A stretch of 64,000 bases of DNA, from NCBI GenBank assembly GCA_027263115.1, contig GCA_027263115.1_3656.1; one strand, 5' to 3'. The notes beneath the pieces were generated by a model, which did not search any database, was not told the DNA's origin, and saw only the letters and a list, made by a program, of their open reading frames with translations. Positions 3,814 through 15,048 of the stretch are shown here, piece after piece. This stretch comes from a phage. Positions within the stretch are counted from its first letter, which is position 1. Every line of letters starts with the position of its first letter. Position numbers and translations under genes: made by a program.

Positions 3814-4077
3814 TCAGAAACCCTCTAAAAAGCTCTTGTAGAAAACAATCTCAGTATCCACACCAGTCACAATCTTGTCGTTCCTGATTTCATCGGTAAG
3901 ATAGGTGTCAAAACGCAGAACCTGTGTGGTGTTGTCACACATCCACTCAGCTGTGACCATTGCGAAAATCTTAGCATCTTCATTATCTGGTGTGAATGTT
4001 ACCACCTCACCGCACTTAAACTTTTCGATAGGTTGAGTGTTAGCTTTCGGTTCTGCGATAGTGATTTTTGTGGTCAT
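3814..4077 (-). CDS. small protein, tandem paralog 3 of 3
   Basis: 87 aa; same length as the two upstream ORFs, shared N-terminal pattern, ATGA overlap. Confidence 0.55.
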   Translation of the reverse strand: MTTKITIAEPKANTQPIEKFKCGEVVTFTPDNEDAKIFAMVTAEWMCDNTTQVLRFDTYLTDEIRNDKIVTGVDTEIVFYKSFLEGF

Positions 4078-4340
4078 TATTCTCCTCCTTCTTTTGAATA
4101 GCTTGTCTCTCCAAGGATGGTAATTTTGGTGTCAAGCTCTGTAACTTTCATGTTTGGTGGCAGATCGTACAACTCATTATTTTCTAAATCGAACCCCCAC
4201 ACACAATGTTCTCCTGTTTTGACAATCATAACTATGTTTTGAATGCCGTCTCCGTCGCAACTTACCACGGTCCCACACGGAAAGCTGTCTGCACGCTTTT
4301 TGTTCTTCACCTTAGAATTGAATACAATGCTGGTAGCCAT
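4077..4340 (-). CDS. small protein, tandem paralog 2 of 3
   Basis: 87 aa; MATxxxFxSxxKxKK start shared with the 4340-4603 paralog. Confidence 0.55.
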   Translation of the reverse strand: MATSIVFNSKVKNKKRADSFPCGTVVSCDGDGIQNIVMIVKTGEHCVWGFDLENNELYDLPPNMKVTELDTKITILGETSYSKEGGE

Positions 4341-4603
4341 TATTGTTCCTCCACCATAACTTCGCCAAGAATTTCTATGCAGGCATCCATTTCTGTAACA
4401 ACCAAACTGTGAGGTAGTTCTACAAACACCTTTCTGAACAGGTCAAATACCCCAACATATATGTTTGCAGGATGTGATTTTACAACAAGTGCTGTATTCA
4501 CATCCCCAAGTTCATCAACAAACATCACCACAGTGCCTGGAGCTACTGAGGACAGATACTTCTTAGTTTTACGGTTTGATGCAAATTTTAACTCTGTTGC
4601 CAT
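4340..4603 (-). CDS. small protein, tandem paralog 1 of 3
   Basis: 87 aa; first of three head-to-tail paralogs. Confidence 0.55.
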   Translation of the reverse strand: MATELKFASNRKTKKYLSSVAPGTVVMFVDELGDVNTALVVKSHPANIYVGVFDLFRKVFVELPHSLVVTEMDACIEILGEVMVEEQ

Positions 4604-4635
4604 AAATAACCTCCTCTCTTACTTAGCGTACTCGA

Positions 4636-6099
4636 TTAATTCCACAGTTTTCCCAAAGCTCGGGATATAATTTTTATTATACCCCTCAGTGAGGACCCAT
4701 AGAGTATCGTACTTTTCCACTTGTTGTCAACAACCTTTTGTTCAAAGTTATGCTCAAAGTATAGGTCGGTCAGGACGATGACATCTTTTGCATTAGGTAT
4801 GTTGGCATCCAGATACTCGAACACGCAAGCAGCTGTTGTGCCCCATGTTGAGTGGACCTCATAGTTGATCATCTCGTCTATGTTGCCGCGAGTGTATACT
4901 TTAACCTCTCCAACCTCAGTTGACCAACAGAACATTGTAACCTTAAACTCTTTATACAGATTGCACAATCCGGTGATTTCATTGAACATTTTCTTTAAAG
5001 TTCTTTGAGAGATCGAGCCAGAAACGTCTAAAGCCACCACAATATCTATAGTGTTTTCCGGATTACGACCAGGAACAATAACGTGCTGGTTCTTGTTTAT
5101 AGCCCCAACTTTTCGCATTGTGCTGGTCAAAGACCCAGATCGGCGACCAGGTTTTCTGTAGGTCAGTTCGGCCTTTCTTTTAGACAACATGCGTTGCTTA
5201 ATGATGTCTATATAGTTGATTACAGGTTTACCTCTGTTCTTGACAAACTCACGCACCGCCTCAGGGCAACGGCCTCCGGACGCTTGCATTGCTGCCTCCA
5301 GCATATCACCAGAGTCCTGCATGGCCTGATCTTTATCAGATTGGCTGATTACAGGTTGTGGCTGATCATACCCCATAGCCTTTCCAAGATTATCGCTGGT
5401 GCCACCGTTCCCACTCATGTGATCATCGGTTTGTCGCTTATCACTTTGAGAGTTCTCACCTTTACCGTTCTTACTTTTACCGTTATTCTGATCTCTTTGC
5501 TTATCAAGAACTGCATAAACGTTCTCAGCAATCCATCCATGAAACTTCATGTCGCAGTAGCAGCTGGCTAAGAAGCCAAAAGGCTTACCTTTCACGAACG
5601 TAGTGCTTTTCCCCTTCGGGAAGAAAACACAAGGAGGTTTGCTAAAGTCAACCACAAGGCCTGTGTTGATAACGTGATCACAAGCAATATTGAACAGTTC
5701 CGGCTCAAAGCTTTTACCACGGACTAGGTGATCACAGATAATATGCCCCACCTCATGTGACAGAAGGAAGGCCACCTCTTTCACAGATTTTGGGGAATAG
5801 AAAACTTCAGCCATCTCAAACTGCTCGTCAGTTAGAGAAGCCTTAAGAATAGCCTTGCGTTCATCAGCCAATCCCATAATGAACTCAGGACTGTAATAGA
5901 TGCGTTTATGGTCGGTTGCCATGGTGGAGCACCATGTGTGGTTTTCTACGAACTGCAACCCTGACAGTAGTGTGCCATAGAACGGCAGCTTTTCAAGGAG
6001 ATACATACGTGCAGCCTGCAACATTCTCAGGGCATCATCTTTCTGCGAGGCAATGATTTCTGAACTTCTGCTATCCATTAAAACTCCAGAAGGGGCCAT
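4636..6099 (-). CDS. vWA domain protein with N-terminal HExxH putative metallopeptidase domain
   Basis: HEVGH zinc-peptidase motif plus VVALDVSGSIS MIDAS-type vWA motif; real start may be the internal Met near 6078 preceded by GGAG. Confidence 0.65.
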   Translation of the reverse strand: MAPSGVLMDSRSSEIIASQKDDALRMLQAARMYLLEKLPFYGTLLSGLQFVENHTWCSTMATDHKRIYYSPEFIMGLADERKAILKASLTDEQFEMAEVFYSPKSVKEVAFLLSHEVGHIICDHLVRGKSFEPELFNIACDHVINTGLVVDFSKPPCVFFPKGKSTTFVKGKPFGFLASCYCDMKFHGWIAENVYAVLDKQRDQNNGKSKNGKGENSQSDKRQTDDHMSGNGGTSDNLGKAMGYDQPQPVISQSDKDQAMQDSGDMLEAAMQASGGRCPEAVREFVKNRGKPVINYIDIIKQRMLSKRKAELTYRKPGRRSGSLTSTMRKVGAINKNQHVIVPGRNPENTIDIVVALDVSGSISQRTLKKMFNEITGLCNLYKEFKVTMFCWSTEVGEVKVYTRGNIDEMINYEVHSTWGTTAACVFEYLDANIPNAKDVIVLTDLYFEHNFEQKVVDNKWKSTILYGSSLRGIIKIISRALGKLWN

Positions 6100-6112
6100 T
6101 GGCCCCTGTTAT
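6087..6112 (-). terminator. intergenic hairpin, possible leftward terminator or attenuator
   Basis: inverted repeat aggggccattggcccct between the 6112-7155 stop and the next gene; weak U-tract. Confidence 0.35.
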
Positions 6113-7155
6113 TATTTAACGTGTTTGAAAATACCTGCCAACTCGGTCATTGTCATGCGGGTGGTCTTCATAAGATCTGTCATAGCTTTCTCCATAATTG
6201 GAGATACTACCATAAAGTTTCCTTTAGTGAAACCTTTATTCCAGTCGGTCACCAACAGAGGTTTAAGTCCAGCTCCAAGACGTTCACCAGTTAAAGCACA
6301 GCATTTGCGAATATACGAACTCTTAAATTGGCTGAACGACAGATCAACTTTCATACCTACATCGTAGAACGTTTGACAATAGAAAGTGTAAGCTTTGGCA
6401 ATCTCAACATCATCAGGTAGTGCAGGAACCTCTTCTGTAAGCTCCTCTTCGACCTCCTGAGTCTCTTTTTCCTCTTCATGCACCTGTTGCGTCATTTCTT
6501 CAATCTCTTCTGTGATAGGCTCGTTTACAATGTCGGAAATGTGCTTCTTGGGTGCACGATAAGTAACTTTAGACATCGGTAGCATATCTTCCTCCTCTTC
6601 TTCGTCAAAGAGTGCTAGTTTATCCTCTTCCGTTCCATATTGCAAGATGAAATCTTCAAAAGTATAATCACCTTTCAATTTCTCCATACGCTCTTCGCTC
6701 AGGTGGAGCATCATCTGCTGGACAATTTTTCGATCAGTTTCGTCTTTAATCAAGACTGCAGTCTTTTTATCTACCAGACAGTCCTTTAGAGAGTTGCATC
6801 TCAATCCCACCACACAACAGTTATCAACCGCATAAGGACCTTCATCATCTATCCGCTCCAGAGATGGGTAGAAAGGATTTCCCAGCCCGTTTTCATCTGT
6901 GTGCATGTCAAAAGGTATAAGGGTATAGTCGCATACTCCATCTCCTAAAAGTTTTTTACCAAATAGGAGGTATTCTTCCCATGACAGGTCGAACTCTATA
7001 TCTCGTTTCCGTGCGTTATTCTGTTTGCGTCTATATTTTTTGAGCAAGCGCTCTAACTCTTCTGGTGTATAATATTTTTCAAGATTCATGAGTCGTCTCT
7101 CGTGCTCTGTAAGTGAAGAAATCGTATCAATTGTCTCAACAGATGTCAACATCAA
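6112..7155 (-). CDS. HNH-like endonuclease domain protein with acidic C-terminal region
   Basis: N-terminal region carries an SLERID...PY..DN....CN..K pattern typical of a phage HNH variant; possible internal start at MSKVTYRA (see inverted repeat finding). Confidence 0.45.
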   Translation of the reverse strand: MMLTSVETIDTISSLTEHERRLMNLEKYYTPEELERLLKKYRRKQNNARKRDIEFDLSWEEYLLFGKKLLGDGVCDYTLIPFDMHTDENGLGNPFYPSLERIDDEGPYAVDNCCVVGLRCNSLKDCLVDKKTAVLIKDETDRKIVQQMMLHLSEERMEKLKGDYTFEDFILQYGTEEDKLALFDEEEEEDMLPMSKVTYRAPKKHISDIVNEPITEEIEEMTQQVHEEEKETQEVEEELTEEVPALPDDVEIAKAYTFYCQTFYDVGMKVDLSFSQFKSSYIRKCCALTGERLGAGLKPLLVTDWNKGFTKGNFMVVSPIMEKAMTDLMKTTRMTMTELAGIFKHVK

Positions 7156-7162
7156 AAACGTG

Positions 7163-7191
7163 TTGACTTTACTCTAACTCCACAATATAGT
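7163..7191 (+). promoter_or_regulatory. sigma70-type promoter
   Basis: TTGACT-17nt-TATAGT in the divergent intergenic region upstream of the 7232 gene. Confidence 0.6.
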
Positions 7192-7231
7192 GCACCCATT
7201 CGAAAGAAAACTAACATAGGAGCACTTACTT

Positions 7232-8131
7232 ATGGCAAATCTTAACAGTTTTAGTACGCGGTGGAAACAGGACATAACAACCAATCTTTCAGCTGGGGAC
7301 ATCCTTTCTGCAATTTACGAGGCTTTAGATGATAAAGCTACTTCAAAAGCGGTTTGTACCAACCCACTAATTCCTGTAGTGATGAAGGTTATTGAGCGTA
7401 GATTGGTATCTGGGTCTGATAAGTGGACATATTTAGATAATGAAGGACACACCTATTCCAATGGGTACGTCGATATAAAAGTAGAATACGCGGTATCATA
7501 CCGCCGGAGCGGTTCTGTAACTTTCAACTTCTCTGGAGGTTTTCGATCTCTGGCTACCTCACCTTTTGTTTCCTCAGAGGAGAAGTATGAGCTGCCATTT
7601 CTTTGGATGATGGCTAACGCGACAGGAAAAACCCCCGTTAGCATCCGAGTAAAATACAACTACAACGGATCTAGTAAGATCTATGCCGAAAGTGTCTCAG
7701 CAAGTTTTTATTTTGTGATGGGGGATGGAATCCTCAAACATATAAAGATGTGCGATATGCATGATGTTATAAATGAAGTGACTGATAAGAATGTTCTAGT
7801 GAAAGACCTCAACAATTTTTATACACCCGGAGACTATTACGTCAGCCGTCCACTGTGCATCTTTAATGCCGCACACCCTCTAGGTGAGTATTTGATCGCC
7901 AATAGTGATATTGCCAATAACCGCTTCGAGGTAGCAAGAGTTCAGAATGAGGTATTGACATCTTGCAAGAGCGGTGATAAGTTTACCGAAGAAGAGATGG
8001 GTGTTTTAGAAATGATGGGATATAAGTGTAGCCTTTGGGTAGATGAGGTGTTTAATGATTGCATCTATGGACAGGATATTTACCCATTAAAGAAGTATAC
8101 TGATACAAGTTTAATTTATGCGAGGGTTTGA
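7232..8131 (+). CDS. hypothetical protein
   Basis: 299-aa ORF with TAGGAG RBS; first gene of the rightward block. Confidence 0.6.
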   Translation: MANLNSFSTRWKQDITTNLSAGDILSAIYEALDDKATSKAVCTNPLIPVVMKVIERRLVSGSDKWTYLDNEGHTYSNGYVDIKVEYAVSYRRSGSVTFNFSGGFRSLATSPFVSSEEKYELPFLWMMANATGKTPVSIRVKYNYNGSSKIYAESVSASFYFVMGDGILKHIKMCDMHDVINEVTDKNVLVKDLNNFYTPGDYYVSRPLCIFNAAHPLGEYLIANSDIANNRFEVARVQNEVLTSCKSGDKFTEEEMGVLEMMGYKCSLWVDEVFNDCIYGQDIYPLKKYTDTSLIYARV

Positions 8132-8406
8132 CTATGATGAAGGCATGTGGTAATGTATATTACGTCGGTGAACATGTTCAGGCAGACAGTGTGTGGAAAT
8201 CTATTAAGTCCACCACTGACGATGCCTTTCTGAGTGGACTATGTTTCCCCAATCCGGGAGACATCCTCCCTCATCCTGGAGATTTTGTTGTCAACAAGAT
8301 GGACGGTTATACCGTGTGCCTGATGGTTGAAAAAATCTTTTTAGACACTAGACACAATCACCGTCTTGTGTTAAAATTTCAAGAATGTAAAATGACAATT
8401 GCCTAA
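8128..8406 (+). CDS. hypothetical protein
   Basis: 92-aa ORF, ATGA overlap. Confidence 0.5.
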   Translation: MTMMKACGNVYYVGEHVQADSVWKSIKSTTDDAFLSGLCFPNPGDILPHPGDFVVNKMDGYTVCLMVEKIFLDTRHNHRLVLKFQECKMTIA

Positions 8407-8419
8407 GGAGACCTTACCG

Positions 8420-8776
8420 ATGTCTAAAGTTACTTATCGTGCAGCTATTTACTGCAATGAACACCCAATCAATAATGATGGTCACTGCCTTTTTAAAGAA
8501 AATCAATTGGGCTGTATTGTCCTCCCTGATGAAGGGGAAGGTTATCTGATTGCATTGACAGGGTTTGAACCTGAGGCTCTGGAAGCCAATCTGGACTACC
8601 TGGTAGAAGAGGGTGCTGCAGACCTGGTTGCCAATGGCCTCTCCATAAGCCTTGACGAAGTAGAGCGCTTCATGGGCAATTACCGTGTAGTGCGTGAGTT
8701 TACTATCGAGGTGGAAACTCCCGAGTGGGGTAGCCATGAAACTAATGCCGAAGAAAAAGAAGAGGAGGTAGAATAA
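8420..8776 (+). CDS. hypothetical acidic protein
   Basis: ATG preceded by AAGGAGA; track start 8399 is a TTG and less likely. Confidence 0.5.
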   Translation: MSKVTYRAAIYCNEHPINNDGHCLFKENQLGCIVLPDEGEGYLIALTGFEPEALEANLDYLVEEGAADLVANGLSISLDEVERFMGNYRVVREFTIEVETPEWGSHETNAEEKEEEVE

Positions 8777-9033
8777 TGAAAGTGCAGATCTTGACTAATG
8801 CCGAGAAGATGTTTATTGAAGATACACCTTTTGAAGCTGGTGAGCTACAGTTCGTTTATTTTGTTGACTTAGATAAGGTGTTTCCTGCACTGAATCTAGG
8901 TTTGGATGAAGTTCCTCATAAGGTTTTGTGCCAAGTTGTTCGTGCCTTAGCGGCAGAGGGGGAGTTCCACACCCTTCAAGATGTCCAGACCTACGGGTAT
9001 CTTGAACTACAACGAGAAGAAGAGGTGGACTGA
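8776..9033 (+). CDS. hypothetical protein
   Basis: 85-aa ORF, overlapping stop/start. Confidence 0.5.
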   Translation: MKVQILTNAEKMFIEDTPFEAGELQFVYFVDLDKVFPALNLGLDEVPHKVLCQVVRALAAEGEFHTLQDVQTYGYLELQREEEVD

Positions 9034-9035
9034 TA

Positions 9036-9416
9036 ATGGCTCAGTGGAAGACAACAGTTGACCTTCATGATCAGTGGTTAGGACGCATCACTGAAGACGG
9101 GAAGCTAGTGGAGTGGGACAATAAGCATGTTAGCGAGTTGGCAAGTATTGTGGCTGGCAAGTTACGCTCCAAGTTCCCTGAACAACTGGATCCTGATAGT
9201 TCAAAGTTCGATCCTGAGTTGGAGGATGTTGTATACTACTTCGATACCGTGGATGACTACGATGCGTGGTTTGCAGCACGGGAGCTTTACCCACAAGGCT
9301 CTGCTATGCGCCAGATGGAAGAAGATTATCCTCCGTGTGAGCAATTCAATAGTGCAATGACTTGCCTCTATGATTGGGCAGATAAGAACCTTGTCTGGAT
9401 TCGGACTGCATTTTAG
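9036..9416 (+). CDS. hypothetical protein
   Basis: 126-aa ORF. Confidence 0.5.
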   Translation: MAQWKTTVDLHDQWLGRITEDGKLVEWDNKHVSELASIVAGKLRSKFPEQLDPDSSKFDPELEDVVYYFDTVDDYDAWFAARELYPQGSAMRQMEEDYPPCEQFNSAMTCLYDWADKNLVWIRTAF

Positions 9417-9460
9417 TGGGCAGGAATGGCGGCAAGGATGCTGCTTAAGGAGTAGTAGAG

Positions 9461-9730
9461 ATGTTATACCAGCAATATGAACTTCGTGCAGAAAAAGAGT
9501 TAAATTTTGACAAAGATATTCACAGATATTATTATGGGAAAGTTAGAGGGCAAGCAAGAAAGTGTACTCCAACACTCTTTTATGCCAGCAGACGACTAGC
9601 GCCAGAAGAGGCAACAGCAGAAAGGGTTGCATACAACTGGGAAGTTGTGTACGATATTGACAGATCCGATGTGATATCTGTTTTGGAAAACTTTGAAAAC
9701 ACTTACACACAAGTAGAGGACTTTTACTAA
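9461..9730 (+). CDS. hypothetical protein
   Basis: 89-aa ORF. Confidence 0.5.
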   Translation: MLYQQYELRAEKELNFDKDIHRYYYGKVRGQARKCTPTLFYASRRLAPEEATAERVAYNWEVVYDIDRSDVISVLENFENTYTQVEDFY

Positions 9731-10914
9731 TGTCAAGAAACGTATTTGAAAGTGGTCAAATCACTGTCCGTGAGTTGCCAGCTATCATTCAGTTTGCCCA
9801 GCGTCATAACCGATCTGTCCTGATTTTAGGACCAATGGGTGTGGGAAAGAGTCAGGTGATGAAGCAGATCGCTGATAATATGTTCGGTGAGCGAGATGAC
9901 AACCTGGTTGACGTGCGGCTGTCAGATAAAGATCCTGCCGACTTATCTGGGCTACCTATCCCTGTAGAAGCGGATGGGACTACACGTACAGTGTTTGCAA
10001 TCCCAGAATTTTGGCCTGCGGATCCTGACTGGAGCGGAATTGTCTTTCTGGATGAGCTCACTCATGCAGATAACTACCTGCAAAAGGTTGCAATGCAGAT
10101 TATGCTCGACCACAAGTGCGGCACCTATGCATTCCCTAAGGGCTCTGTTTTTGTAGCTGCAGGTAACCGTTCTACAGATGGTGCTGTTCTTTCGGCGCTC
10201 GAAGCCCCTCTGGCTAACCGCTTTATCATTGTAGAAGTTACAAGCAACGCAGAGGTGTTTATTGAGGACTACGCATTCCTTAATGGGGTGCACTCCTCTG
10301 TAATTGGATATCTGAAAAGAGTTCCATCAGCTATTGATAATTATGAGGCCATGGCTGAGATTAATTGTCCATCTTTTGCCACACCGCGATCTTGGGTTGC
10401 TGCATCTGATATCTTGCACGATTTTGACAGCGGTATTATTTCTGACGCTATGGCCCGTGTTCTTCTACAAGGTGCTATTGGTCACACTGCAGCGGTAGAG
10501 ATCTGGACTTACCACACCAAGAAACGCAACTTACCGGAAATCGGTCGGATTATGGCAGGAGGTTGCAAAGAATACGTAGGCCCTAAACAGCCAGACATCT
10601 TGTGGATTCTTGGATCTGAAGGTTGTATCGCTATTCGTAATATGATGGAAAATGCAAGTATCTCCGACGAAGATCTTGTTAGCTGTGTGGCAAACTTCCT
10701 CGATTTCCTTTGGGAAAACTTCAAGGACGAGAACCGAGATTTTGTATTCTCAGTCTTTATGGCGATGATGAAACCTAATGCCTTAGGAAATGCCTTGCTT
10801 ATCGGTAAAGGTCGTGACAAGATTGTTGCTCAGCTGATCAAAGCATACCCAAACCTGATGAAGATTGTAAAAGAGTTTGGTGAAGAGTTTAGCGCCATTT
10901 TGGCTAAAGCTTAA
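9730..10914 (+). CDS. MoxR-like AAA+ ATPase (AAA_5 type)
   Basis: Walker A LILGPMGVGKS, Walker B IVFLDEL, and sensor region VFVAAGN typical of MoxR/CbbQ ATPases. Confidence 0.8.
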   Translation: MSRNVFESGQITVRELPAIIQFAQRHNRSVLILGPMGVGKSQVMKQIADNMFGERDDNLVDVRLSDKDPADLSGLPIPVEADGTTRTVFAIPEFWPADPDWSGIVFLDELTHADNYLQKVAMQIMLDHKCGTYAFPKGSVFVAAGNRSTDGAVLSALEAPLANRFIIVEVTSNAEVFIEDYAFLNGVHSSVIGYLKRVPSAIDNYEAMAEINCPSFATPRSWVAASDILHDFDSGIISDAMARVLLQGAIGHTAAVEIWTYHTKKRNLPEIGRIMAGGCKEYVGPKQPDILWILGSEGCIAIRNMMENASISDEDLVSCVANFLDFLWENFKDENRDFVFSVFMAMMKPNALGNALLIGKGRDKIVAQLIKAYPNLMKIVKEFGEEFSAILAKA

Positions 10915-10923
10915 GGAGGTTGT

Positions 10924-11304
10924 ATGGCTAAAGTAGGTAAGCGGGGAAACTACCTGGTGGTATTGACCGAGGAGCCGGAGAAGGAGTACGAATGCAGCTC
11001 CACTTGCGTGATCGATATCCGAGAAAAAGATGTAGATGAAATCTGGTTTAAAATATTGGACGCTTGCGATAGCAGTGATTATTTCTTCATCTATGTCAAC
11101 GATAAGGCTGGGTTCTTCCATGACGACGGAGAGTTGCCGTATGAAATCTATGAACTTGTAGAGGCTTGCCATCGTGGAGATGCGGAGTTGTTTGGCTTAC
11201 GGCTGAAAAGCGGTAAATTCTTCTATCAAGATGAGTGCATGAATCTTCATAACTTTGTAGAGGGAACTTGCAACGATGGAGAGATTTTGGCACACTACGA
11301 TTAA
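10924..11304 (+). CDS. hypothetical protein
   Basis: 126-aa ORF with AAGGAGG RBS. Confidence 0.5.
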   Translation: MAKVGKRGNYLVVLTEEPEKEYECSSTCVIDIREKDVDEIWFKILDACDSSDYFFIYVNDKAGFFHDDGELPYEIYELVEACHRGDAELFGLRLKSGKFFYQDECMNLHNFVEGTCNDGEILAHYD

Positions 11305-11352
11305 TTTCTAATACCACCCCGCTTCGGCGGGGATTTTCTATTTGGAGTTATT

Positions 11353-11853
11353 GTGAAAATTAAGATCTTTGCTATTATTTTGAGCGCATTTTTATCGCTG
11401 CCTGTTGTTGCAGCACCAAAACAAAAAGTATATCATACTTGCAAGCCCTCAGATACTAAGGAAAACATTTTGGCATGTAATATCTACAGGGAAGCTAGAG
11501 GGGATGGCACGATGGGTATGCTGGCATCTGGGTTTGCCACATTAAACAGGAAATCTCACCCTAAATACCCAGACACTATAAGAAAGATTGTCTACCAACC
11601 TAACCAGTTTTCGTGGACAAACCACGGCAAAACTTTTAAGGTGACAGAAAAAGATTCATGGGATCACGCTAAAAGTCTTGCAAAGATGCTTCTAAAGGTC
11701 TATAATAACAACCATGTTGCATACATGGCTATGGATATAACAGGTGGAGCAACACACTACCATACAACCAAAGTACGACCGAAATGGGCAAAAAAGATGC
11801 AGAGGACAGCTCAATTCGGGAGCCATATCTACTACAAGGAGCGCAATAAATGA
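11353..11853 (+). CDS. secreted cell-wall hydrolase, SleB/CwlJ family
   Basis: N-terminal signal-like peptide MKIKIFAIILSAFLSLPVVA; YREARGDG...LNR...YPDTI...QPNQFSW and ATHYH motifs match the Hydrolase_2 fold. Confidence 0.7.
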   Translation: MKIKIFAIILSAFLSLPVVAAPKQKVYHTCKPSDTKENILACNIYREARGDGTMGMLASGFATLNRKSHPKYPDTIRKIVYQPNQFSWTNHGKTFKVTEKDSWDHAKSLAKMLLKVYNNNHVAYMAMDITGGATHYHTTKVRPKWAKKMQRTAQFGSHIYYKERNK

Positions 11854-13832
11854 TTGTAAACAGTAATGAAACTAAAGCAGTGCTAACCGGAAATATGGAG
11901 GTCACCAGGGGCTCAATTTCTCTGAACAAAGAGACTTTTGGGCTAATCATTAAAGGGATTTACGAAGATAAGGTGCTGGCAAGCTGCCGTGAACCAATCT
12001 TCAACGCTGTAGACTCCCATGTTGAGTCTGGACGGGGTGATGTACCGATCATCATTCACTCTCCTACAGACCTTGAACCATACTTCTTTGTGCAGGACGT
12101 TGGATTGGGCATGTCAGAAGAGATGGTCCGCAACACGTTCATGAACCTTGGAGAGTCAACCAAGCGCAACAGTAACGCTCTGGTAGGTAATAAAGGTGTT
12201 GGTTCAAAGGCTCCGTTCAGCATGGTGGACACTTTCGATGTTATCAGTGTGCACAATGGTGTTGAAAGCACATATCTATTGTTCTTGGATCAGGGTATCC
12301 CAAACGTTACCAAGATCCGCGAGCGGAAGACTGAAGAGCACAACGGGGTAAAAGTTCAGTTTCATGTTAAGAAAGAGCATGTCCTGAAATATCGCACTGC
12401 TATTGCATCGTGCTTACGCTATGCGAAGTTTCCGTTCACCGTCACCGATCCCATGACCAGTAAGATGTTAGAAGGTGACAAGGTTGAGGCACAGTATCAT
12501 TACGAGAAGGATGGCTGGAAAATGACCATCCTGAAAGGTTATACCAGTTCTGATGAGAGCCGTGTTGTGATGGGTCACCAACCTTACCGCTCTAAGTTCC
12601 TGGAGACATTGACCGATTACCCTGCAATCTGCGTGGAAATTCCTATCGGGGATTGCAATATTAACCCTGGGCGTGAATGGACCATTGAGGGCCATGACGA
12701 CGGTGGATTCCAGGATCGCCTGGAGGCCTTTGTTAAAGAAGGTATACGTCTTCGCGGGGCAGAAGTTGTTGCAGAACTGGAGACGGCAAAAACCTCAGCA
12801 GAAGCACGTGAAATGATGAAGAATAGTGGGGTGTTCGGACACATCTTCGGCAAAAACTTTATGTGGAACCGTTGGGAAGAAACAGGGCTTGGCGACTTAG
12901 GCGATTGTGAAATTTTCGCTGGCGGCTTAAATAAAGGCCGCATAGGCTATGCTCGTTACGGAAAGTCGGAGTTCTTACGAGGTGTATACCTTGTATTTAA
13001 CGACGGAGACGGCAAATATAACCGAAATAAGTGTAACTACTTAAGCGAGATCACCGGACGCAACGTTTTCTATTGCCGTAACACGGATCTGGTGGAAGAG
13101 TTTAAAGAAGCGGCACACCACCCGTTCTTTGCAGATACGGTCAAATTGTTATCAGAGCTCCCTCGCCGACCTGCGAAGAAAGGTGAAACAAAAACTCATT
13201 ACGAGCCAGGTTATTGGGTTAAAAAGCTTGAGAAGGATGGTTACTTCCGTCGTGAACGTATTACTAAGGCAGAGTTCAAGAAGATTAAGCACTGCATTCC
13301 TTATGAGGGTGATATCCAACGTGGAAGTTGTTGGCTGGGACAGCTGAGTAACATCTACCAGCAAAATTATGACCGTGTGCGTGCGGCACTCCAGATTCCT
13401 GAAGGGGAAGACCTGTACCTGGTATCAGAATCCCGTCTGCTTTGGACTAATCCTGATTGCCAGTATGTTACAGAGAAAAATGTGGAACATTTGTTGAAAG
13501 AGGACGCCTGGAAATTCTTACTGACTCGCGCAGCAAATGAAACTTCATATGACAGCCTGTATAGACAATTAGGGAAAATTATCCCCATGCAGGATTTTGG
13601 AAATTATCGGCCACATTTCCACAAGTGGGAAGGTAACACCGCGTGGAAGCACAGTGAGCTAAATCATCGTGCCAAAATCTTAATCGCCAACCGGGTTAAG
13701 TGCGGGAAGGCCTATATTGCAAGATTGGAAAAGAAATATCCACTTTTGAAGCATGTGGGCTTGAAATATTGGGACACTCCTGCTATGATTGAATACCGTG
13801 AACTGATCGATACAAAGAATAACATCAAATAA
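11850..13832 (+). CDS. rIIA: rIIA-like protein with GHKL-type ATPase domain
   Basis: VQDVGLGMSEEMV and GNKGVGSKAPFSMVDTFDVISVHNG align with the T4 rIIA N-terminal ATPase-like region as recalled; followed by rIIB. Confidence 0.8.
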   Translation: MIVNSNETKAVLTGNMEVTRGSISLNKETFGLIIKGIYEDKVLASCREPIFNAVDSHVESGRGDVPIIIHSPTDLEPYFFVQDVGLGMSEEMVRNTFMNLGESTKRNSNALVGNKGVGSKAPFSMVDTFDVISVHNGVESTYLLFLDQGIPNVTKIRERKTEEHNGVKVQFHVKKEHVLKYRTAIASCLRYAKFPFTVTDPMTSKMLEGDKVEAQYHYEKDGWKMTILKGYTSSDESRVVMGHQPYRSKFLETLTDYPAICVEIPIGDCNINPGREWTIEGHDDGGFQDRLEAFVKEGIRLRGAEVVAELETAKTSAEAREMMKNSGVFGHIFGKNFMWNRWEETGLGDLGDCEIFAGGLNKGRIGYARYGKSEFLRGVYLVFNDGDGKYNRNKCNYLSEITGRNVFYCRNTDLVEEFKEAAHHPFFADTVKLLSELPRRPAKKGETKTHYEPGYWVKKLEKDGYFRRERITKAEFKKIKHCIPYEGDIQRGSCWLGQLSNIYQQNYDRVRAALQIPEGEDLYLVSESRLLWTNPDCQYVTEKNVEHLLKEDAWKFLLTRAANETSYDSLYRQLGKIIPMQDFGNYRPHFHKWEGNTAWKHSELNHRAKILIANRVKCGKAYIARLEKKYPLLKHVGLKYWDTPAMIEYRELIDTKNNIK

Positions 13833-13842
13833 GGAGACCAAG

Positions 13843-15048
13843 ATGATTTTCATCTACGAACATTTCAAAACTCGTAAAGAAGCACGTGACCGCCGTGCAG
13901 AACTTGAGAAGAAGGGTTTCACATGTGCCATTGAGAAAGGCGACACAACCTGGACACTGGCAGTTGGTGCCCCAGAGTTGTTCGATCCTGACCGTGACAG
14001 CGTCTGCTACACCCGTGAGGATTTTGAAACCCGTGAAGAGGCCCGTTTATTTAGATATGGGCTGGAAGATAACGGTAAGTACGCCATGATCTTAGACTTA
14101 GGCGAAGGTTCCGTTAAACGTTGGGGCGTGGTATACCCACTGTGTGTTGTTCACGGTGTGGGGTTTACTGGGGTAGCAATCAAGTCAGAAGAACCTTTAG
14201 TAGAAGTCAAAGATCCGGTGCTGGAAGTGGTGAGCAGTGTGTCTCAGCAACAGACTCGAAGCATCGAGCCTTTGGTAGTTATTTGCGGGGAACTCCTCCA
14301 GATCACCTGCAACGAAGGAATTTTTGAAATTCGCCGCAGCGAAAGTGAGGAAGTTTACCAGAAAGTCTTCGACCATATCTCTGTTCAGGAATATGATGAG
14401 GCAATTGGTGAAATCCTTGTCTGGCTGGAACGCAAGAGTGAGTTCACCACACTTGCAGACAACCTGATCATGAAAGATGGTAAGCTCTACTACTACGGTG
14501 TAGAGATGCGATCCACCATTGCAAAGAAAATTGAGAAAGATTATGCAGACGGAACGCTGGATGACCGCTATGTGAAATTCCTCGTTCGCCTGCTACGCAA
14601 TCCTTCTGCAAAATCTGTAAACATGCTCTACGATTTTATGCAGGCCAATGATATTCAGATTGCAGAAGATGGTCGAATCATTTGCTACAAAGGGGTTCAG
14701 TTTAACGGCAGCAAGTGGGTGGATTGGCACAGTGGTAAAGTCCCACAATACCAAGGTGCTTTTGTATCCATGCCTCGTAACTTTGTAGAGGATGATCCTG
14801 AAGCTGCGTGCTCCTATGGCTTACACTGCGCCAGCAAAGAGTATGCAAAGAGCTACGGCACTGTAATGACTGTCATGGTTGACCCTGCAGATGTAGTTAG
14901 TGTGCCATATCAACACAATAGCGCTAAGTGCCGTGCATGCCGCTATGAGATTGTGGTAGCTCCGGAAGCACGCAAAGATGGAGACCCTATTGAATATGTA
15001 GTTGATCGTGACGGTAACACTATCGACATTCTTTACGAGGAGGCGTAA
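13843..15048 (+). CDS. rIIB: rIIB-like protein
   Basis: LYDFMQANDIQIAEDG, CSYGLHCASKEY and SMPRNFVEDD resemble conserved T4 rIIB blocks as recalled; sits directly after rIIA. Confidence 0.8.
   Translation: MIFIYEHFKTRKEARDRRAELEKKGFTCAIEKGDTTWTLAVGAPELFDPDRDSVCYTREDFETREEARLFRYGLEDNGKYAMILDLGEGSVKRWGVVYPLCVVHGVGFTGVAIKSEEPLVEVKDPVLEVVSSVSQQQTRSIEPLVVICGELLQITCNEGIFEIRRSESEEVYQKVFDHISVQEYDEAIGEILVWLERKSEFTTLADNLIMKDGKLYYYGVEMRSTIAKKIEKDYADGTLDDRYVKFLVRLLRNPSAKSVNMLYDFMQANDIQIAEDGRIICYKGVQFNGSKWVDWHSGKVPQYQGAFVSMPRNFVEDDPEAACSYGLHCASKEYAKSYGTVMTVMVDPADVVSVPYQHNSAKCRACRYEIVVAPEARKDGDPIEYVVDRDGNTIDILYEEA

Follow-up and report, generated by a model that had tools for sequence, protein, structure and literature searches.

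A MoxR-like ATPase and a metallopeptidase-vWA protein encoded as a split, divergent gene pair in a vequintavirus-like phage contig

The window analyzed here, a stretch of 64,000 nucleotides from phage contig GCA_027263115.1_3656.1 (NCBI GenBank assembly GCA_027263115.1), carries two genes that a first-pass annotation had linked as a MoxR-vWA pair: one for an AAA+ ATPase and one, on the opposite strand, for a protein that combines a putative metallopeptidase domain with a vWA domain. Both open reading frames (ORFs) were found where that annotation had placed them. The ATPase ORF spans 9730-10914 (+) and encodes 394 residues; the partner ORF spans 4636-6099 (-) and encodes 487 residues as read. 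The two genes are divergent and separated by 3.6 kb. The 10 kb surrounding them share 98-99% identity with Escherichia phages of the genus Vequintavirus, which are rV5-like myoviruses of ~137 kb; 112 records span at least 80% of this query, and the nearest is phage WalterGehring (Bas51).

We assigned the ATPase to the MoxR class from its homologs, family matches, profile and fold, because none of its own Pfam matches reaches the gathering score (16.4 bits for AAA_5, where 22 are required, and 15.8 for bpMoxR, where 27 are). Searched alone against Pfam, NCBIfam and the PDB sequences, the protein gave only sub-threshold matches at the level of the P-loop. The family evidence is stronger. Homologs at 35% identity (E ~1e-45) have precomputed AAA_3 and AAA_5 assignments, and of 27 family members 15 match bpMoxR, 12 AAA_5 (best 2.4e-9) and 11 AAA_3. 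The family profile matches the AAA modules of Midasin/Rea1 (E 9.5e-11), ranking them before Clp and p97, and the protein itself matches PHROG 1297, 'ATPase', at 2e-110. An AlphaFold (AF2) model had a predicted local distance difference test score (pLDDT) of 85.7, and the best PDB folds returned for it by Foldseek were NorQ, CbbQ2 and cso-CbbQ (E 5e-8 to 1e-7 for NorQ and CbbQ2). The identification as a divergent MoxR-class AAA+ protein is secure, even though the direct AAA_5 match expected from the first reading stayed below threshold.

The ATPase contains the complete set of AAA+ catalytic motifs, invariant across the 27 homologs. These are Walker A, GPMGVGKS (9829-9852; G37, G39, K40 and S41); Walker B, VFLDE (10042-10056; D108 and E109); the segment from sensor 1 (AAGNR) to the arginine-finger motif (LANRF) at 10156-10224 (N146, R147 and R164); and sensor 2, ATPRSW (10378-10395; P219 and R220), all on the plus strand. 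In the AF2 model, DSSP assigned strands at residues 75-81 and 84-90, which form a predicted beta-hairpin (between beta2 and beta3; 9949-10014, +) at the position of the helix-2 insert, and further short strands at 129-134, before beta4. A helix-2 insert and a pre-sensor-1 beta-hairpin characterize the AAA+ clade to which MoxR, dynein, Midasin and McrB belong. The helix-2 insert of NorQ contacts a 'finger' of the vWA protein (PMC13036017); by analogy, hairpin 75-90 may play this role in the phage ATPase.

The partner was predicted to be a DUF2201-type protein with an HExxH motif and a vWA MIDAS, an adhesion site dependent on metal ions, and this was borne out. Its ORF matches two Pfam families above their gathering scores: DUF2201_N, 'putative metallopeptidase' (PF13203; E 4.5e-28, 99 bits), and, C-terminal to it, DUF2201, 'VWA-like' (PF09967; E 5.2e-9, 36.7 bits). 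An intact ortholog scores 101.2 and 43.8 bits, respectively, and all 32 aligned homologs have both domains. Members of the family also match M48, SprT-like, PhageMetallopep, DUF5700 and M78, and the profile weakly matches selecase MJ1213 (E 0.006). The DUF2201 protein by itself had no match among PDB sequences. In fold searches, the partner gave vWA matches, including NorD and BchD; its profile also aligns with the MIDAS of integrin I-domains (E 5e-5). A disordered acidic linker joins the zincin-type domain to the vWA domain.

The conserved motifs of the partner, whose invariance was judged across sets of 20 and 32 diverse homologs from phages and bacteria, fall in both domains and lie on the minus strand. 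The putative zinc site and catalytic glutamate are contained in HEVGHIICDH (HExxHxxxxH; 5728-5757), with H115, E116, H119 and H124 invariant. The next helix carries ACDHVIN (5665-5685; A139, D141 and N145 invariant), whose A-x-D...N pattern is a candidate additional metal ligand. A basic RPxRR motif precedes the vWA core (RKPGRR, 5140-5157; P317, R319 and R320 nearly invariant) in a segment of low model confidence (pLDDT 57-68); it is a candidate vWA 'finger' or linker. The MIDAS is complete: DVSGS (DxSxS; 5014-5028, with D358, S360 and S362 invariant) is followed at 4759-4845 by the T of WGTT (4834-4845) and the D of LTDLY (4759-4773), with G420, T421, T444 and D445 invariant.

To see how generally the two families occur together, we sampled the best 80 loci of at least 561 IMG/VR stretches that encode relatives of the partner. 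An ATPase homolog was present in 77 of the 80; in the remaining three, the partner gene lies at the end of the contig and no upstream DNA is available. Outside the clade in which the genes are split, each of the 65 testable loci has the ATPase gene upstream of the partner gene and on the same strand, with a gap of -3 to 2,803 bp that is often below 130 bp, and the closest relatives of the ATPase outside the vequintaviruses have a DUF2201 gene directly 3'. The same order prevails in bacteria, where the two families had been said to be normally adjacent. Among 80 sampled proteobacterial loci (from a scan whose alignment was headed by a bacterial sequence, which skews it towards Gamma- and Betaproteobacteria), the ATPase gene is directly 5' of the DUF2201 gene in 74 of the 75 that were testable, with a median gap of 4 bp. 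This pairing is far above chance: in the phages and bacteria sampled, the two families form a strict, obligate syntenic pair.

The chromosomal operons, which pair a COG0714-like ATPase with a 'predicted metal-dependent peptidase', match the window in families, gene order and intact motifs. They differ from it in being chromosomal and in often carrying a third gene. Of 47 long proteobacterial loci, 28 have this gene, of ~381 codons and without a Pfam family, just after the pair (for example at 7297-8409 of locus L005). It is absent from the phages and is possibly a third component or a substrate of the cellular system.

In cultured phages, the vWA partner occurs in at least 626 records, which comprise Vequintavirinae and their relatives, N4-like Schitoviridae and jumbo phages (PA5oct, PBECO4-like phages (A4), XbC2 and SCTP-2). 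The family as a whole has 13,983 representatives at 50% identity (E <= 1e-30). Conserved neighbors of the pair in uncultured phages carry PHROG labels that mostly read 'unknown function'. In PA5oct, the two genes (963-2078 and 4965-6149) are parted by four others, including a putative homing endonuclease.

Members of the module include gp24 and gp25 of phage N4 (Schitoviridae). The window's ATPase is orthologous to gp24 (hhalign probability 99.9%, E 2.5e-36, 279 columns) and its partner to gp25 (100%, E 2.2e-56, 348 columns), and gp25 shares the two-domain architecture with HExxHxxxxH and MIDAS. Identity is only ~25%, however, and the N4 genes lie side by side, 168 bp apart and read in the same direction. 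Both proteins, gp25 as a 'vWFA domain' protein, are among the 14 core genes of N4-like phages (PMC4193335) and stand in the core list of Schitoviridae (PMC7650795). Downstream of the module by a few kilobases, homologs of rIIA and rIIB are found both in the window (11850-13832 onward) and in N4 (6461-11076), which could reflect shared synteny of an early or middle region, or coincidence.

An earlier description exists as well. Iyer et al. (2021, Viruses 13:63) reported a MoxR AAA+ and metallopeptidase-vWA 'chaperone-cochaperone pair' in group 2.2 jumbo phages (PMC7824862). As in the window, a MoxR ATPase accompanies a vWA protein that has a metallopeptidase domain at its N-terminus; we infer that the families are the same from this architecture and from the jumbo-phage matches to the window's partner. 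The pairs differ in that the genome here is a non-jumbo one of 130-140 kb with the genes split, and in that the assembly role proposed for the jumbo phages fits the gene context here poorly. GenBank relatives of the window already label the ATPase gene 'MoxR ATPase' or 'ATPase' and the partner gene 'putative metallopeptidase' or 'VWA-like domain-containing protein'. Because of these annotations and the published jumbo-phage architecture, the novelty implied by the first-pass annotation is overstated: the module was already known. What is new here is the equivalence with N4 gp24/gp25, the pairing counts, the clade-wide inversion, the divergent promoter region shared by the two genes in the window, and a private frameshift. 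The first-pass suggestion of a phage-adapted module stands insofar as this is a phage module, seen in N4 and in the 626 cultured records; it is not an adaptation special to this phage, and only the split is lineage-specific.

That split is a property of the clade. All 12 vequintavirus-like contigs compared (our loci L006-L017), which range from 97% to 37% identity, show the divergent arrangement of the window, with 3.5-5.1 kb between the two genes. A single inversion of the segment bearing the ATPase gene turned the co-directional order of ATPase and DUF2201 gene (A>D>) into <A...D> in the Vequintavirinae-like clade. Since the split, the two proteins have diverged in parallel, the ATPase from 97 to 43% identity and the partner from 97 to 37%, with their motifs intact, and both genes are kept under selection.

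The partner gene of the window has one lesion, which lies near its 3' end. A run of four adenines at 4713-4716 (-) replaces the five found in relatives, and this 1-nt deletion exchanges the conserved last 31 codons for 25 unrelated residues that end with the stop at 4636. Reading on in the shifted frame (4619-4714) restores the conserved C-terminus, KYDTLWVLTEGYNKNYIPSFGKTVELIEYAK, which ends at 4619. The Pfam DUF2201 match accordingly covers positions 1-122 of 123 in the intact ortholog and 1-90 of 123 in the window ORF. The 5' end also needs adjustment: the true start is probably the ATG at 6078 (MDSRSS...), which is preceded by a GGAG Shine-Dalgarno sequence and from which orthologs are annotated. 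The ATG at 6099 falls within a GC-rich hairpin, GGGGCC-AAT-GGCCCC (6091-6107, -), which lies between the stop of the preceding anti-sigma-like gene and the DUF2201 start and is a possible attenuator. As in relatives, then, the DUF2201_N (zincin-like) plus DUF2201 (vWA/MIDAS) gene, ortholog of N4 gp25, would occupy 4619-6078 (-) and encode 486 residues.

The four-adenine allele occurred in none of the 39 phage records that matched this stretch in a 91-nt megablast search of the phage collection; an exact-pattern search of IMG/VR was uninformative, as neither the four- nor the five-adenine allele matched. Since the allele is private and lies in a homopolymer, the simplest reading is that it is probably a sequencing error. 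If it is real, it is a natural truncation that removes the last strand and the tail of the vWA domain. One could go further and regard the partner here as a decaying pseudogene, with the ATPase acting alone and the split marking a lost functional coupling. What the deletion removes is indeed conserved, and the matching C-terminus contacts the ATPase in NorD and CbbO (PMC13036017). We nevertheless consider decay highly improbable: a private homopolymer variant is the typical form of a sequencing error, the gene is free of further lesions and otherwise has 98% identity to intact orthologs, and the motifs of both genes are intact throughout the split clade.

The two genes of the window appear to be driven from a common control region. 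Both transcription units begin in a 142-bp intergenic region, where we predict, at the level of consensus matches, back-to-back sigma70-like promoters (7121-7191): a leftward one, TTGACA-17-TACGAT (7149-7121, -), and a rightward one, TTGACT-17-TATAGT (7163-7191, +). Their -35 boxes lie within a perfect 6-bp inverted repeat, GTCAAC-N11-GTTGAC (7145-7167). The record of phage Gotham (MT682716) marks both sites as promoters (PhagePromoter), and it also marks as a terminator (ARNold) the strong terminator-like hairpin at 11317-11332 (+) that closes the rightward unit containing the ATPase gene. This arrangement suggests coordinated early expression of both genes by the host RNA polymerase. An operator or a bidirectional hairpin is a further possibility for the palindrome at 7145-7167.

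The first gene of the leftward unit encodes an 'anti-sigma factor' or Srd-like protein (ORF 6112-7155, -; 325-347 residues), which the Gotham and WalterGehring annotations start at 7089 (6112-7089, -). Its product matches PHROGs 3118, 4592 and 1400, with PHROG descriptions that include T4 Srd ('decoy of sigma70'), endonuclease VII and HNH; it matched no Pfam family and has an acidic, glutamate-rich central linker. In the split clade, this gene always lies directly 5' of the DUF2201 gene. We considered it as a conserved third partner of the module and rejected it: its conservation is confined to the split clade, it is not related to N4 gp22, and 68 other viral neighborhoods lack it.

The closest mechanistic parallels to the pair are NorQ/NorD and CbbQ/CbbO of the CGN subfamily. 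There too, a flexible linker connects the partner's N-terminal domain to a vWA domain at the C-terminus. The N-terminal domain itself differs, being zincin-like with HExxH in the window and of the NorD or CbbO type in those systems; identity is ~16-21%; compared with NorQ and CbbQ, a helical region of ~120 residues is added at the C-terminus of the window ATPase; and, unlike NorQD and CbbQO, the window module has no linked metalloenzyme substrate. Cryo-electron microscopy work on NorQD, with finger-in-pore docking and a C-terminal contact (PMC13036017), serves as the mechanistic template.

We consider it reasonably probable that the ATPase and its partner form one phage machine, the same module as N4 gp24/gp25, which would act before the late phase as a NorQ/NorD-like ATPase-adaptor feeding a fused zincin. 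By analogy with NorQ/NorD and CbbQ/CbbO, the ATPase would form a hexameric ring on which the vWA domain docks, held by a finger-in-pore contact and by the C-terminus of the partner; hairpin 75-90 of the ATPase, the RPxRR segment and the conserved C-terminus are the candidate contacts. The MIDAS site would then grip an acidic residue of one particular target protein, which ATP hydrolysis would twist or stretch together with the adaptor, so that the fused zincin could cut or process it. In the window, both genes would be transcribed early from the shared control region with its back-to-back sigma70-like promoters, and the module would serve the replication or host-takeover phase, early or middle, rather than late morphogenesis. 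We offer only tentatively the idea of an ATP-driven selective protease, made before the late phase, in which the MoxR ring mechanically presents a MIDAS-captured target to the zincin and phages as unlike as rV5, N4 and PA5oct all process one conserved protein, of host or phage, in the course of takeover or replication.

Might the module instead insert metal? In this alternative, the pair would mature a cofactor site as NorQ/NorD, CbbQ/CbbO, CoxD/CoxE and BchI/BchD do, with the HExxH motif holding or delivering the metal that activates a phage or host metalloenzyme, for example one of nucleotide metabolism. The nearest solved folds (NorQ, CbbQ and NorD, with BchD also matching) are consistent with this, as are the nucleotide-metabolism enzymes that recur as neighbors and the fact that MoxR-vWA systems typically mature metalloenzymes (PMC13036017; PMC9976466). 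The catalytic glutamate of HExxH is invariant, however, and the family matches genuine peptidase families (M48, SprT-like and M78). Nor is any one metalloenzyme gene consistently linked to the pair across Vequintavirinae, N4-like and jumbo phages. We regard metal insertion as quite unlikely.

The preferred reading, a pre-late ATPase-adaptor-zincin machine, takes its timing from three observations. First, gp24 and gp25 transcripts are middle-class in N4 (PMC4193335). Second, the module of the window has the promoters described above and the Srd-like gene and rIIA/rIIB as neighbors. Third, neighbors in other phages include a 5'-3' exonuclease, thymidylate synthase, a gene like that of dihydrofolate reductase (recognized by eye from sequence), dCTP deaminase and dUTPase. 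The means of transcription differ, as N4 uses its own middle-phase RNA polymerase II for gp24/gp25 (PMC4193335) and the window has sigma70-like promoters.

This timing bears directly on the main rival, in which the pair is a virion-assembly chaperone and maturation protease: ring and adaptor would help to build tail, fibers or head, and the zincin would process structural proteins. Iyer et al. proposed an assembly role for the jumbo-phage pair by analogy with the p618 and p892 proteins of the archaeal virus ATV (PMC7824862), the sole viral MoxR-vWA pair studied experimentally. There, p618, the MoxR ATPase, is a virion protein; it binds tail proteins as well as the vWA protein p892, which stimulates the ATPase (PMC4124505). 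With the window, ATV shares the type of pair; it differs in that p618 is a major virion protein of 618 residues modeled on RavA, and p892 has no peptidase domain (PMC7824862). In PA5oct, the ATPase ortholog carries an 'ESI-MS/MS' virion-proteome flag and the vWA partner does not. The tail-fiber sets of vequintaviruses are also unusually complex. It is the PA5oct flag and the morphogenetic ATV precedent that make assembly the main rival. Against it, the N4 transcripts are middle-class and not late-class, the virion flag is missing from the PA5oct vWA partner and the peptidase domain from ATV p892, and in all contexts examined the module lies in replication, nucleotide-metabolism or early regions, never in structural modules. 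We judge an assembly role to be possible, if rather unlikely.

Apparent early or middle expression next to rIIA/rIIB and a Srd-like 'anti-sigma' gene also raises the question of whether the pair is a counter-defense or host-takeover protease that degrades a specific host immunity or housekeeping protein. MoxR-vWA systems of hosts have been found in conflict systems (PMC7159879). However, the pair is core across phages of diverse hosts (Escherichia, Pseudomonas, Vibrio and roseobacters) and its chromosomal orthologs sit in a fixed bacterial operon, both atypical of patchy, fast-evolving anti-defense genes. A PADLOC search with four proteins gave no meaningful or significant match, and therefore no link to known defense systems. 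Such a function appears very unlikely.

Several points weigh against the proposed pre-late machine. The PA5oct virion flag on the ATPase and the virion location of ATV p618 (PMC4124505) both favor a morphogenetic role. The promoters are consensus matches; sigma70-like sites are not enriched in the region (28 found, against 20.6 +/- 4.7 in shuffled sequences), and the back-to-back promoters were not recovered in the phi92-like relative L007. The zincin fold of the partner's N-terminal domain was not visible in the fold searches, where vWA matches crowded the lists, and its peptidase activity is putative. The vWA C-terminus is frameshifted in the window, and this particular pair may be non-functional if the deletion is real. 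Our literature search found no experimental work on the DUF2201 family, with 'DUF2201' mentioned in only four papers and there incidentally; the two genes go unmentioned in the CRISPRi-ART paper on EdH4 and N4, and the main text of the PA5oct paper and the BASEL paper make no gene-level statement on the module.

Other small genes flank the pair. An 89-codon ORF at 9461-9730 overlaps the start codon of the ATPase gene (ATGA), which suggests that the two may be translationally coupled at 9730. It is kept only in vequintavirus and phi92-like relatives, at 47-95% identity, and falls in a PHROG named 'ATPase', though it is much too small for one. Immediately downstream (3') of the vWA gene lie three tandem, abutting ORFs of 87 residues each, at 3814-4077, 4077-4340 and 4340-4603 (-). 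They are paralogous, with 18-28% identity to the first copy and a common pattern, G-x-V-V ... V-T-x-x-D-x-x-I. In the IMG/VR relative L006, the copy at 3814-4077 has a 98% match, and the other two share one match of ~40% at a single position.

Labels in this family call for care. Wrong names are spreading for the DUF2201 vWA protein, among them 'HNH endonuclease' (PHROG 1314 and RefSeq N4 gp25), 'anti-sigma factor' and 'DNA repair ATPase', and PHROGs 1314, 3118 and 13164 contain label errors. Among the matches to 4000-14000 of the window are also 16 records titled 'Campylobacter phage C..' (host Campylobacter jejuni) that are ~98% identical to E. coli vequintaviruses, which looks like mislabeling or contamination of these deposits. 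Annotators should likewise know of the probable sequencing-error frameshift in the window's vWA gene.

The instance in the window is not surprising and adds little beyond the split, but the module itself is worth experimental work. It is a large blind spot, belonging to the ~14-gene core of N4-like phages and present in at least 626 cultured genomes and ~14,000 family representatives. The split in vequintaviruses shows that the partnership does not need adjacency, and if the protease-machine reading is true, divergent transcription could let the stoichiometry of ring and adaptor be tuned apart. As a rule, a MoxR-vWA system is a maturase dedicated to a single target complex. Finding the target of this module would reveal a conserved step of lytic development and test MoxR-driven proteolysis; if our tentative scheme is correct, the pair would become the first MoxR-vWA system to end in proteolysis and to have a defined role during phage infection.

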